Below, piece by piece: positions 12,001 through 15,000 of a DNA stretch of 48,504 bases. Source of the DNA: a virus. Lineage: Duplodnaviria; Heunggongvirae; Uroviricota; Caudoviricetes. The stretch lies in IMG/VR virus record IMGVR_UViG_2718218100_000006. One strand, given 5' to 3'. Each line of letters begins with the position of its first letter. Positions within the stretch are counted from its first letter, which is position 1. Made by a program: the position numbers.

Positions 12001-15000
12001 CGTTCTTTATGCGCAATATCGAGACGGTGAGTTTTTTGATGTAGTCCGTAATGGTGATGAATTTTTCGAAACACAGAGCCGCAATGTAACCGACTGGATG
12101 CCGCTACCAGAACCGCCGCAGGAGGTGCGCCAATGATCTGGCCTGAAGCCTTTGCAATTACAGGCGTTGCTATAGCTATTGATTTTTTAGTATATGTTAT
12201 TTGTCGGTGGGGGTAAAAACGTTCGCCGGGATTCACACCAAAGGAGGGAATATGTCGGATGATATTTCACTGGCAATGGAAGGTGCGCTGGCTGTTATTG
12301 CTGTTGTGGGCGTTTACTGCCTGGTTGTGTTTTTGATGGATCGACTAGGGAACTGAATTCATTACGATATGGGAATTCCCATATCGGGTAAAAACGGTTT
12401 GCGGTAAAGCGAGAGTTAAGTAGAATTGCTGCGGGTGCTTGAGGCTGTCTGCCTCGGGCATGCCACCGTAAGGCAGACAGAGAAAAGCCCCAGTTAACAT
12501 TACGCGTCCTGCAAGACGCCTAACATTAATCTGAGGCCAATTTCATGCTAGACACATGTAGGTTAGCCTCTTACGCGCCGAAAGGCAAGGAGAAGCAGGC
12601 TATGAAGCAGCAAAAGGCGATGTTAATCGCCCTGATCGTCATCTGTATTACCGTCATAGTGACGGCACTGGTAACGAGGAAAGACCTCTGCGAGGTACGA
12701 ATCCGAACCGGCCAGACGGAGGTCGCTGTCTTCACAGCTTACGAACCTGAGGAGTAAGAGACCCGGCGAGGGAGAAATCCCTCGCCACCTCTGATGAATC
12801 AGGCATCCTCAACGCACCCGCACTTAACCCGCTTCGGCGGGTTTTGTTTTTTCCTGGCATTCTGGTTTACAATTCGCACGCCAGCCTGAACAACTGGCAC
12901 CTGCTGCGCCAGCAGAGACAACCGATGGCGCACGATACCAAATTATACAATTCTGATGATTCTGCCGTCTTTGCCAGCAGGCGCGGACGGTGTTTTTACG
13001 CATTCAAATCTGACTGGTACCAGCATCCCCCATGCACTGAAGAACAGGCCGAATGGCTCATTCAGTGTTACCGCAGGCGCGGATGCGAGGTTAAAAAAGC
13101 CCTTAGCCTCGACTACCGTCACTGGATAATCTCCGTCAGGCTCCCTTACTCCGAACGGCCACCGCGTCCGTCCCGCACATTCCAGCAACGGATCTGGAGG
13201 TAATGTGCGGGTATTACTTCGACCTGTTCTGGTACCGGAACTCGGTCTGGTTATCGTTAAGCCAGGCCGTGAATCAATGTCAGCATTCCATAACGGCAGA
13301 ATACTGGTGGAGCCGGAACCAAAAAGCATGCGAGCTCTGCCGTCCGGGGTTGTACCTGCCGTTCACCAGCCGCTGGCGGAAGATAAATCACTACTGCCAT
13401 TTTTCAGCGATGAGCGGGTGATCCGTGCTGCGGGTGGCGCTGGTGCACTGTCTGACTGGTTATTACGTCACGTGAAATCCTGCCAGTGGCTACACGGTGA
13501 TTATCATCACAGCGAAACCGTCATTCACCGTTACGGTACCGGCGCGATGGTGTTGTGCTGGCACTGCGACAACCAGCTGCGGGAGCAGACATCTGATTCA
13601 CTGGATCAACTTGCTCAACAGAATCTGGCCGCCTGGATGATTGACATCATCCGTCACGCAATGAATGGCGCACAGGAGCGTGAATTATCTCTGGCTGAAT
13701 TATCCTGGTGGGCGGTCCGCAATCAGGTGGCGGACGCGCTACCGGAAGCGGTATTACGTCGTTCGCTGGGGTTGCGTGCGGAAAAAATCCGCTCCGTATA
13801 CCGTGAAAGCGACATCATACCGGGAGAACAGACCGCCACCAGCATACTGAAGCAGCGCACAAAAAATATTGCGCTACCGCCTCACACCCACCAGCAACAG
13901 AACCCACCACAGGAAAAGACGGTGGTCAGCATTGCCGTTGATCCGGAGTCTCCGGAATCCTTCATGAAACGACCTAAACGTCGCCGCTGGGTAAATGAGA
14001 AATACACACGCTGGGTAAAGACACAGCCGTGTGCGTGTTGTGGTAAGCCAGCGGACGATCCTCATCATCTGATTGGTCATGGTCAGGGCGGAATGGGAAC
14101 AAAATCCCACGATATTTTCACGCTACCGCTGTGTCGGGAGCATCACAACGAGCTTCATGCGGATCCGCTGGCGTTCGAAGAAAAGCATGGTTCCCAGGTT
14201 GATTTAATTTTTCGTTTTCTTGATCACGCCTTTGCAACCGGCGTGCTCGGGTAAAAGAGGTTACTGATGCGTATAGAGTTTGTTTTGCCTTACCCGCCGA
14301 CGGTGAACACCTACTGGCGACGTCGTGGCAGCACATATTTTGTATCAAAAGCCGGTGAGCGTTATCGCCGGGATGTGGCACTTATTGTTCGCCAGCAGCG
14401 GCTGAAATTAAACCTGTCCGGAAGGCTGGTGATAAAGATTATTGCAGAGCCACCGGATAAGCGCCGTCGTGACCTGGACAATATCCTGAAAGCACCACTG
14501 GATGTGCTGACGCATGCCGGACTTCTCATAGACGACGAGCAGTTTGATGAAATCAATATTGTGCGCGGTCAGCTCGTTCCTGGTGAGCGGCTGGGGATAA
14601 AAATCACAGAACTGGAGTGCGCATGAATAACCACTATTTACAGTTTGTGCGTGAGCAGCTCATTATCGCCACCGCTGATTTGAGTGGGGCAACAAAAGGT
14701 CAGCTTGAAGCCTGGCAGGAGAATGCCATGTTCGATACAGGGCGTTACAGGCGAAAAAAAATCCGGTACCGCGATGAAGTGACTGGAAAAATGATAACGC
14801 GGGATAATCCACCAATCCCGGGAAAGCAATCGCTGGCGAAGGTGACGTCAATTCCTCTGGTCAGTCCGGTTGAGTTTTCGACATCATCGTGGCGGCGGGC
14901 TGTTCTGTCTCTTGAAGAACATCATAAAGCCTGGTTGTTGTGGTGTTACAGCGGGAGTATTTGTTGGGAATATCAGATCGCGATAACACAGTGGGCGTGG

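Follow-up and report, generated by a model that had tools for sequence, protein, structure and literature searches.

A Prophage-Borne hok/mok/sok Type I Module and a Separate Palindrome Upstream of It

The hok Toxin Gene and the mok Frame

The DNA analysed here, referred to below as the window, is a stretch of 48,504 nucleotides from a tailed virus of the Caudoviricetes (IMG/VR record IMGVR_UViG_2718218100_000006), and its subject is a toxin locus of the hok family on the plus strand at 12399-12851. An earlier note, made from the sequence alone, had described a hok-family toxin locus with a mok-like extension, a structured leader and an expected antisense Sok RNA on the minus strand. This description is supported by protein and RNA families, RefSeq annotation, the mokC/hokC/sokC locus of E. 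coli K-12, the prophage locus hokW-sokW, RNA folding and covariation. The module itself is an ordinary locus of an already known kind, and both the existence of such loci and the enrichment of hok genes in prophages have already been described. RefSeq annotates only the toxin gene, whereas mok, Sok and the RNA elements can now be placed to the nucleotide in the prophage of a pathogen.

The toxin gene, hok, occupies 12602-12757 of the plus strand and encodes a protein of 51 amino acids (MKQQKAMLIALIVICITVIVTALVTRKDLCEVRIRTGQTEVAVFTAYEPEE). The Hok-like open reading frame (ORF) picked out in the earlier note is real, matching the Pfam family HOK_GEF (PF01848) with an E value of 9.7e-24 and 83.2 bits against a cut-off of 22, and sharing 50 of its 51 residues (98%) with HokD of K-12; the RefSeq/PGAP label for the same interval is hokD, type I toxin. 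The protein consists of an N-terminal membrane helix, a cysteine at position 30 and a C-terminal periplasmic tail. Its Shine–Dalgarno (SD) sequence, AAGGAG, lies at 12587-12592.

The in-frame extension of 19 codons seen earlier in the mok position holds as well. The mok frame (12545-12757, plus strand; 70 codons) starts at the ATG at 12545, runs in frame with hok and ends at the same stop codon. The sequence GAGG at 12533-12536 can be read as its SD, 8 nt before the mok ATG, and the same GAGG motif serves mok of plasmid R1 (PMC9841398). The layout agrees with that of mok genes, with an SD of its own and a position upstream of and overlapping hok; translational coupling between the two frames is presumed from the family. 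The homologue in phage Evi carries the annotation 'MokW protein'.

Near the end of hok, the motif TACG (12740-12743), formed by the codon of Tyr47 and the following G, is a candidate site for adenosine-to-inosine editing by TadA, which would change Tyr47 to Cys. The surrounding heptamer TTACGAA (12739-12745, Tyr47-Glu48) is unchanged in all 91 aligned hok loci. In hokB, hokC, hokD and hokE, a change of Tyr to Cys through TadA editing in this context has been reported (bioRxiv 10.1101/2025.08.07.668861).

Promoter, mRNA and Leader Elements

A putative hok promoter can be read at 12399-12426 of the plus strand, comprising a -35 hexamer TTGCGG (12399-12404), a 16-nt spacer and a -10 hexamer TAGAAT (12421-12426). 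In all 64 distinct upstream contexts of homologous loci, a -10-like hexamer stands at a constant distance from GGGTGCTTGAGG, the motif with which the leader begins, and the DNA farther upstream is unrelated. Because this spacing is constant while the upstream DNA differs, the promoter is assigned to 12399-12426 and the start of transcription to about 12433, the position at which the alignment to the Rfam model also begins. From there the predicted full-length mRNA extends for about 419 nt (12433-12851) to an intrinsic terminator, found by a terminator scan at 12826-12852, with its stem at 12826-12843 followed by a T run. The folded mRNA reaches a minimum free energy (MFE) of -182.5 kcal/mol, with z = -7.9 in comparison with shuffled sequences. 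Unlike K-12 hokD, the interval 12399-12851 contains no insertion sequence (IS) element and no truncation.

The elements that govern translation in this family can be placed along the mRNA; their names stand for translational activator (tac), fold-back inhibitory element (fbi), and upstream and downstream complementary box (ucb and dcb). The tac element GGGUGCUUGAGG forms its 5' end (12433-12444) and can pair with fbi in the full-length RNA or with ucb in the truncated one, following the published model (PMC9841398). Next comes the 5' hairpin (12445-12480), whose arms CTGTCTGCCT (12445-12454) and AGGCAGACAG (12471-12480) are exact complements. This is the fold-back pair previously noticed in the leader, which is now understood as the top of the tac stem-loop and not as a separate repeat. 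The conserved anti-SD element ucb (AAAAGCCCC, 12483-12491) pairs with the mok SD in the full-length RNA or with tac in the 3'-truncated RNA. It is followed by the Sok-target stem-loop (12491-12537), assigned from the Rfam structure, the reverse complement of which is the Sok terminator hairpin. The element dcb (GCCUC, 12566-12570) pairs with the region of the mok SD in the open form. In the 3' untranslated region (UTR), a hairpin formed by GGCGAGGGAGAAAUCCCUCGCC (12765-12786) is likely to be the protective 3' end of the processed mRNA, a role taken over from R1, and the fbi element CCUCAACGCACCC (12807-12819) is complementary to tac. The fbi element is retained even in loci of Erwinia and Kluyvera but is gone from K-12 hokC.

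The Rfam family RF01794, named 'sok', matches the plus strand of the window at 12433-12607 with 116.9 bits (gathering score 59), the full model (positions 1-157) being aligned. It also matches the hok-sense strand in K-12 hokC (118.3 bits, L002 602-754) and in an R1-type plasmid locus (87.2 bits, L003 332-503). Since K-12 sokC is annotated on the opposite strand, RF01794 is a model of the hok mRNA leader; the match marks the leader and not the strand of Sok, and the Sok gene is the reverse complement of the 3' half of the model. The strand of the match was rejected as a direct delimiter of Sok on the same grounds. Matches of the 3' UTR of hok to isrK (27.7 bits) and rsmX (20.3 bits) fall below the gathering scores and were judged to reflect likeness of the terminator hairpin only.

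The Predicted Sok Antisense Gene

An antisense RNA had been expected on the minus strand at about 12480-12560, and homology transfer places Sok within this interval, running from about 12553 to 12483. In K-12, sokC begins 8 nt inside mokC, which puts the equivalent 5' end at 12553 and predicts a Sok RNA of about 71 nt (12483-12553, minus strand), its position being carried over from the annotation of sokC. The predicted RNA has a free 5' tail over the mok start codon, a long hairpin and a terminal UUUU, and folds with -32.9 kcal/mol (z = -5.6). The interval onto which the published sokW northern probe maps is the same, and antisense complementarity in hokW-sokW likewise amounts to 71 nt (PMC8621323).

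The predicted Sok promoter lies at 12560-12588 of the minus strand, with a -35 hexamer TTGCCT (12588-12583), a 17-nt spacer and a -10 hexamer TAACCT (12565-12560). The block AGGCAAGG is invariant across the 91 loci. Both hexamers are those of sokW, and the -10 hexamer is the one mutated in the hokW-sokW study, where primers YO-421/422 replaced TAGGTTA (TAACCT on the Sok strand) to give a promoter-less sokW, with the loss of protection (PMC8621323).

The stretch that holds the start of mok and the 5' tail of Sok (about 12537-12560, columns 108-135 of alignment A1) varies more than any other part of loci that elsewhere share 93-97% identity. It comes in at least six versions, each of which keeps a local hairpin. 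This variability probably sets the specificity of Sok for its own hok among co-resident copies, which would avoid cross-reaction.

Predicted Structural Switch and Covariation

Checking the predicted RNA structure and comparing it with the hok/sok paradigm, as the earlier note had proposed, yielded a switch like that of R1. In the fold of the full-length mRNA, 12433-12444 pairs with 12807-12819 (the tac–fbi helix, in both the MFE and centroid structures), and ucb (12483-12491) pairs with the mok SD. In RNAs ending at 12795-12806, that is, with the last 45-55 nt removed, the MFE structure flips to tac–ucb pairing together with pairing of the SD with dcb (12566-12570). A closed-to-open switch of this kind has been described for the hok mRNA of R1 (PMC9841398).

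The structure is supported over 91 distinct homologous loci from Escherichia, Shigella, Kluyvera, Photorhabdus, Erwinia and viral contigs, with slid pairing partners as controls. In the full-length structure, 92.8% of the cells are paired (35-42% in the slid controls) and 41 pairs have changed on both sides (16-25 in the controls); in the open 5' domain, 89% of the cells are paired, against 29-47%. Compensatory changes are found in the 5' hairpin (helix 2), where alignment columns 15/48 form AU in 65 sequences, GC in 11 and UA in 5. The Sok-target stem-loop (helix 3) is 96.4% paired, with six pairs altered on both sides, and the 3' UTR hairpin (helices 16-17) is 97.7-99.2% paired, again with compensatory changes. 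The alternative helices at the core of the switch are paired almost throughout: tac–fbi in 98.2% and tac–ucb in 99.5% of cells over the 91 loci, both being near-invariant, and SD–dcb (columns 103-108 with 139-143) in essentially 100%.

Proposed Mechanism

The mechanism outlined here combines the anatomy established above with dynamics taken from R1 hok/sok and from hokW-sokW of the Sakai prophage Sp5. A weak constitutive promoter would produce the stable mRNA of about 419 nt (12433-12851), which would be silent at full length, with tac held on fbi and ucb covering the mok SD. Slow trimming of the 3' end would remove fbi, allowing the 5' end to refold onto ucb and the mok SD to enter the dcb hairpin, so that the Sok target would become exposed. 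Sok, an unstable RNA of about 71 nt made from the other strand and starting inside mok, would pair with the mok start region, block the translation of mok and hence of the coupled hok, and mark the duplex for RNase III. Once Sok is no longer supplied, whether because the DNA is lost, transcription is shut off or the prophage is induced, translation of the accumulated processed mRNA would begin. The 51-residue Hok would then enter the inner membrane and cause cell death or lysis, possibly after recoding of Tyr47 to Cys by TadA. The prophage would most likely benefit by being more stably kept and, as in hokW-sokW, by lysing the cell sooner once induced. The palindrome that lies upstream of the locus would be dispensable for this mechanism.

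In the case of hokW-sokW, toxicity, membrane localisation and the action of the antitoxin have been shown, together with effects on lysis timing and phage yield, lysis occurring earlier after induction (PMC8621323). By comparison with that system, the intact copy in the window is a candidate contributor to prophage stability and to the timing of lysis in O157-type strains.

The Palindrome Upstream of hok and the 175-bp Insertion

The earlier note had also pointed out a perfect palindrome of 18 bp upstream, at 12367-12384. The palindrome is indeed present, but it extends over 22 bp (CGATATGGGAATTCCCATATCG, 12365-12386), with its centre about 57 bp before the hok start, and it stands apart from the hok module. 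It is the longest perfect palindrome of the window, where about 0.011 palindromes of 22 bp or more would be expected by chance in 48.5 kb. Two more perfect palindromes were observed elsewhere, CAGTTAACATGTTAACTG (18 bp, 22846-22863) and ATATAACTAGTTATAT (16 bp, 5776-5791).

Among the close hok loci in viral contigs, about 20 of 80 carry the palindrome, in each case 68 nt before the mRNA start; in the remaining loci, other DNA precedes the same promoter block. Alignment with type-B and type-C loci reveals a 175-bp insertion in the window with respect to hokW-type loci (12222-12396, plus strand), flanked by an 11-bp direct repeat GGGTAAAAACG at 12211-12221 and 12386-12396. The inserted DNA holds a strong SD (AAGGAGG), an ORF for 34 hydrophobic residues (MSDDISLAMEGALAVIAVVGVYCLVVFLMDRLGN, 12253-12356, plus strand; a hypothetical protein in RefSeq) and the palindrome, and it resembles a small moron-type insertion at a microhomology. 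Just upstream, an ORF for 27 hydrophobic residues (MIWPEAFAITGVAIAIDFLVYVICRWG, 12133-12216) encodes a conserved small membrane peptide that is absent from the RefSeq annotation; its homologues in hokW-type loci end right at the hok promoter block.

The simplest reading is that the palindrome is an element separate from hok/sok, an orphan or relic copy brought in with the 175-bp insertion. It is identical to the commonest type of palindrome found inside phage KilA-N genes, which has the form CG-N5-GGAATTCC-N5-CG, as set out in the next section. The window contains no KilA-N gene and stop codons flank the palindrome, no KilA-N ORF occurs within the fetched flanks of 76 hok-plus-palindrome loci, and of 5426 E. 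coli genomes only 137 contain a matching KilA-N gene, in comparison with more than 2000 that have this hok region. On these grounds, no cognate KilA-N protein is expected to serve the copy beside hok. Likeness to the flank of the KilA-N coding copies is confined to the minus-strand 3' side of the palindrome (13 of 21 nt, P about 0.004 before correction), and this, with the lack of a KilA-N ORF at the site, underlies its designation as an orphan or relic copy. Candidate roles for the copy include a protein binding site, a structural DNA element and a recombination joint. As a known RNA family it was rejected, since no Rfam match was obtained at E <= 1 except a spurious 18-bit 'sok' match on the reverse strand.

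The Palindrome inside Phage KilA-N Genes

In IMG/VR, the exact core of the palindrome has at least 120 matches, of which at least 46 are in contexts unrelated to hok, and the G+C content of contigs across the palindrome scans ranges from 21 to 69%. Many of the matches lie in ORFs that read ...ELS-x-DMGIPISELIQ...QGTWVHP, which are KilA-N proteins (Pfam PF04383, E = 4.3e-27). In a degenerate scan for all codings of D-M-G-I-P-I-S, about 104 of the 120 matches listed proved to be the palindromic codon choice or variants of it that differ by one transition.

To remove ascertainment, KilA-N genes were sampled through the motif QGTWVHP, which is independent of the palindrome, giving 85 distinct genes (IMG/VR loci L144-L469). 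In 60 of the 85 genes (about 70%), a segment of 22 nt in constant codon register forms 9 or more of its 11 possible complementary pairs, and in 41 of them it begins 61 nt ahead of QGTWVHP. In a protein-guided codon alignment, 76% of the cells at the palindrome columns are complementary, in comparison with 8-32% for slid partners and a median of 25% over the rest of the gene segment. Twelve distinct perfect 22-bp palindromes were found, with arms that change in compensating pairs, so that the first and last encoded residues covary. They include the versions encoding DMGIPIS (CGATATGGGAATTCCCATATCG, the type found beside hok), DIGIPIS (CGATATCGGAATTCCGATATCG), DVGIPTS (CGATGTCGGAATTCCGACATCG), DTGIPVS (CGATACCGGAATTCCGGTATCG), ETGIPVS (CGAAACGGGAATTCCCGTTTCG) and VAGIPAT (CGTTGCGGGAATTCCCGCAACG). 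This codon-level pattern indicates that the KilA-N palindrome is kept by selection on the nucleic acid and not on the protein. A hairpin in the sense-strand RNA was rejected as the object of selection, since there is no G.U asymmetry, G.T and A.C mismatches numbering 22 and 20.

The complete list of 50 exact copies of the DIGIPIS-type palindrome in IMG/VR divides into 33 within KilA-N ORFs and 17 in intergenic DNA or in Pro/Ala-rich linkers, and none of the contigs with these copies combines a free copy with a KilA-N-embedded one. A literature search on the exact palindrome strings and on KilA-N palindromes returned no description of them, which is weak evidence of novelty. Together, these data suggest, tentatively and with considerable doubt, that the copy upstream of hok is an orphan of an undescribed phage cis-element, selected at the DNA level in most KilA-N genes, where the residues x-x-G-I-P-x-x covary with their own reverse complement, and also preserved outside these genes, as exact copies between genes and in protein linkers of unrelated phages. 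The KilA-N palindrome may be a recognition site that KilA-N genes encode for their own proteins, or a replication or recombination element, and a foreign KilA-N protein might influence hok from 57 bp upstream.

The conservation of a palindrome in coding genes, with orphan copies scattered over phages of 21-69% G+C, suggests a cis-acting site that has so far gone unrecognised. Should that be the case, the site would offer a way to approach the role of the widespread and poorly understood KilA-N proteins, and it is the only part of this analysis likely to surprise a specialist.

Several other observations were made on the palindrome in viral contigs. It lies between direct repeats of about 30 bp (GGCAACCAATGCGCGCA...) in the contigs L155 (about 6780-6960) and L266 (about 13800-13980), and in L155 the palindrome/repeat array adjoins the start of an ORF of 754 amino acids that looks primase-like by eye, a layout that resembles a replication origin. 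In the AT-rich contig L259 (21% G+C), a KilA-N gene carries two copies of the palindrome 20 nt apart (..NVDMGIPIPGISSLKSDMGIPISQ..), and in the high-G+C contig L220 two related copies sit in a Pro-rich linker; these double copies suggest local duplication or insertion of the palindrome. A non-coding context consisting of CCATACAAG, the palindrome and a terminator, found upstream of ninB in viral contigs, was set aside, being absent from E. coli genomes and partially matched in one cultured phage (two accessions). Finally, Roi of phage HK022, which binds a site within its own gene, was dropped as a parallel: no palindrome of this kind occurs in a 14.8-kb stretch of HK022 that covers the early/nin region, and the ORF in the position of Roi looks unlike KilA-N by eye.

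Prophage Context

The sequence at 12300-12900 is 100% identical to prophage DNA of many genomes of E. coli O157:H7. A related place exists in 4732 of 5426 complete E. coli genomes, with up to 11 places per genome. The reference RefSeq prophage is collinear with the window only over 7844-15524 (99.97% identity); the idea that the whole window corresponds to one RefSeq prophage was rejected for this reason, and the statements on context are confined to that stretch. The neighbourhood is a lambdoid nin region with all its genes on the plus strand, in the order replication module, DUF1627, DUF977, DUF551, small ORFs, hok, DUF968, RusA and Q, and hok has the orientation of the early-right operon.

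An IS3-family element occupies 6535-7844, with an ALIL frameshift pseudoknot at 6870-6986 (121.5 bits), in the early/immunity region, with hok about 4.6 kb downstream. No IS stands at the equivalent site in the nearest RefSeq prophage, that of strain PV15-279. The element may separate hok from read-through of the early operon.

The window also contains other RNA genes. DicF lies on the minus strand at 4223-4274 (76 bits), and three tRNAs (Met-CAT, Arg-TCG and Arg-TCT) lie on the plus strand at 15523-15772, just downstream of the Q region. STnc100 is found at 16548-16720 (plus strand, 102 bits), and an antisense RNA of the P22 sar type at 38042-38108 (minus strand, 67 bits).

Alternative Explanations

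We assign the locus with high confidence to the hokD/hokC subgroup, as a hok/mok/sok type I module that is intact in sequence and complete in structure. That it is an active module is probable, with somewhat less confidence. Several points tell against this view. A generic sigma-70 promoter scan of 12250-12950 returned no promoter on either strand, and both promoters are off consensus; the hok promoter was missed because its -35 hexamer is weak, and the promoters were placed by homology because the scan was empty. The ends of Sok and the hok start are predicted positions. The pairings of tac, fbi, ucb, dcb and the SD are conserved but, being near-invariant, they are not proven by covariation. 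An intact sequence is no guarantee of activity, and the full toxicity of this Hok may hinge on editing of its mRNA at Tyr47. The locus could be seen as an evolutionary relic, intact but silent like the chromosomal hok loci of K-12, with no killing or stabilising activity. Chromosomal hokA, hokB and hokC gave neither post-segregational killing nor a response to rifampicin in the literature, the Tyr at the second cysteine position might leave the unedited peptide weakly toxic, and with up to 11 places per O157 genome any one copy may be redundant. Such a relic is nevertheless quite unlikely here, given that all the regulatory elements are there and visibly constrained, that the locus is identical in hundreds of genomes, that its prophage relative hokW-sokW is active and alters lysis timing and phage yield, and that decay of the K-12 type, through IS insertion or loss of the leader, is not seen.

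Two further proposals concern the palindrome and would give it a part in the control of hok. It could be a regulatory part of the locus, an operator or roadblock that controls hok transcription or insulates hok from read-through of the early operon. Its place between the stop codon of the preceding ORF, 9 nt away, and the -35 hexamer, 12 bp further on, its length far above chance, its capacity to form a 9-bp hairpin and its constant spacing wherever it stands beside hok all suit such a role, but common descent from one insertion accounts for the spacing, a working hokW-type arrangement does without the palindrome, as do most close hok loci, of which about 20 in 80 have it, copies of the exact 22-mer are found in the unrelated contexts counted above, and it has no T run, which rejects it as an intrinsic terminator. 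We therefore regard this role as very unlikely. Alternatively, the palindrome could be the binding site of KilA-N proteins and act here as an orphan operator that links hok to the KilA-N protein of another resident or incoming phage. The occurrence of the same 22-mer inside KilA-N genes, its compensatory upkeep there in twelve perfect versions and the equal numbers of G.T and A.C mismatches, which are better explained by a site in double-stranded DNA than by a hairpin in the sense-strand RNA, favour this proposal, as does the relationship of KilA-N to the APSES DNA-binding domain (weak Mbp1 matches). KilA-N binding to the palindrome is, however, purely hypothetical; the lack of a KilA-N gene in the window and around the 76 loci, the rarity of a matching gene in E. 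coli and the separation of free and embedded DIGIPIS copies among contigs all speak against it, and an operator of this kind is unlikely. The reading of the palindrome as a separate element, carried in with the insertion, is retained.

Comparison with Known hok Systems

The nearest toxin is that of K-12 hokD (relF, in the Qin prophage), and the coding sequence, 3' UTR, fbi and terminator of that locus are about 98% identical to the window from 12590 on. In K-12, hokD is fused behind relBE, with relE in the place of the leader, and the locus has lost the promoter of hok, tac, ucb, the start of mok and the entire Sok gene. Because the window keeps all the elements that K-12 lost, it represents the complete form of the K-12 hokD locus.

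The locus hokW-sokW of Sakai prophage 5, an Stx2 phage, is likewise a hok locus of a lambdoid prophage and occupies the same genomic slot (Takada et al. 2021, PMC8621323). The two systems are near-identical in the leader and in both promoters and have in common the Sok promoter hexamers and the 71-nt antisense overlap, and the published primers match the window with 1-3 mismatches. They differ in the C-terminal tail of the toxin (..VFVDYESEK in HokW, ..VFTAYEPEE in the window) and in the region of the mok start and the Sok 5' tail, and the hokW-type arrangement lacks both the 175-bp insertion and the palindrome, which the window has. Judging from the sequences, the two systems are probably not cross-reactive.

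The K-12 locus mokC/hokC (gef) has the same geometry as the window, with a common stop, an in-frame extension of 57 nt (19 codons) and the start of Sok 8 nt inside mok, and its DNA is about 75% identical over 350 nt. It adjoins IS186 and has lost the fbi region, neither of which applies to the window, whose Sok-target hairpin has an extra internal stem of about 18 nt in comparison with K-12 hokC.

Finally, the hok/sok system of plasmid R1 (parB) has the same elements as the window, namely tac, fbi, ucb, dcb, the SD GAGG, the Sok target and an antisense promoter inside mok, and the same predicted switch. The Hok proteins of the two systems are 40% identical, and the R1 locus is borne by a plasmid, whereas that of the window is borne by a prophage. 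In R1, mok overlaps hok in another reading frame, whereas mok of the window is an N-terminal extension of hok.

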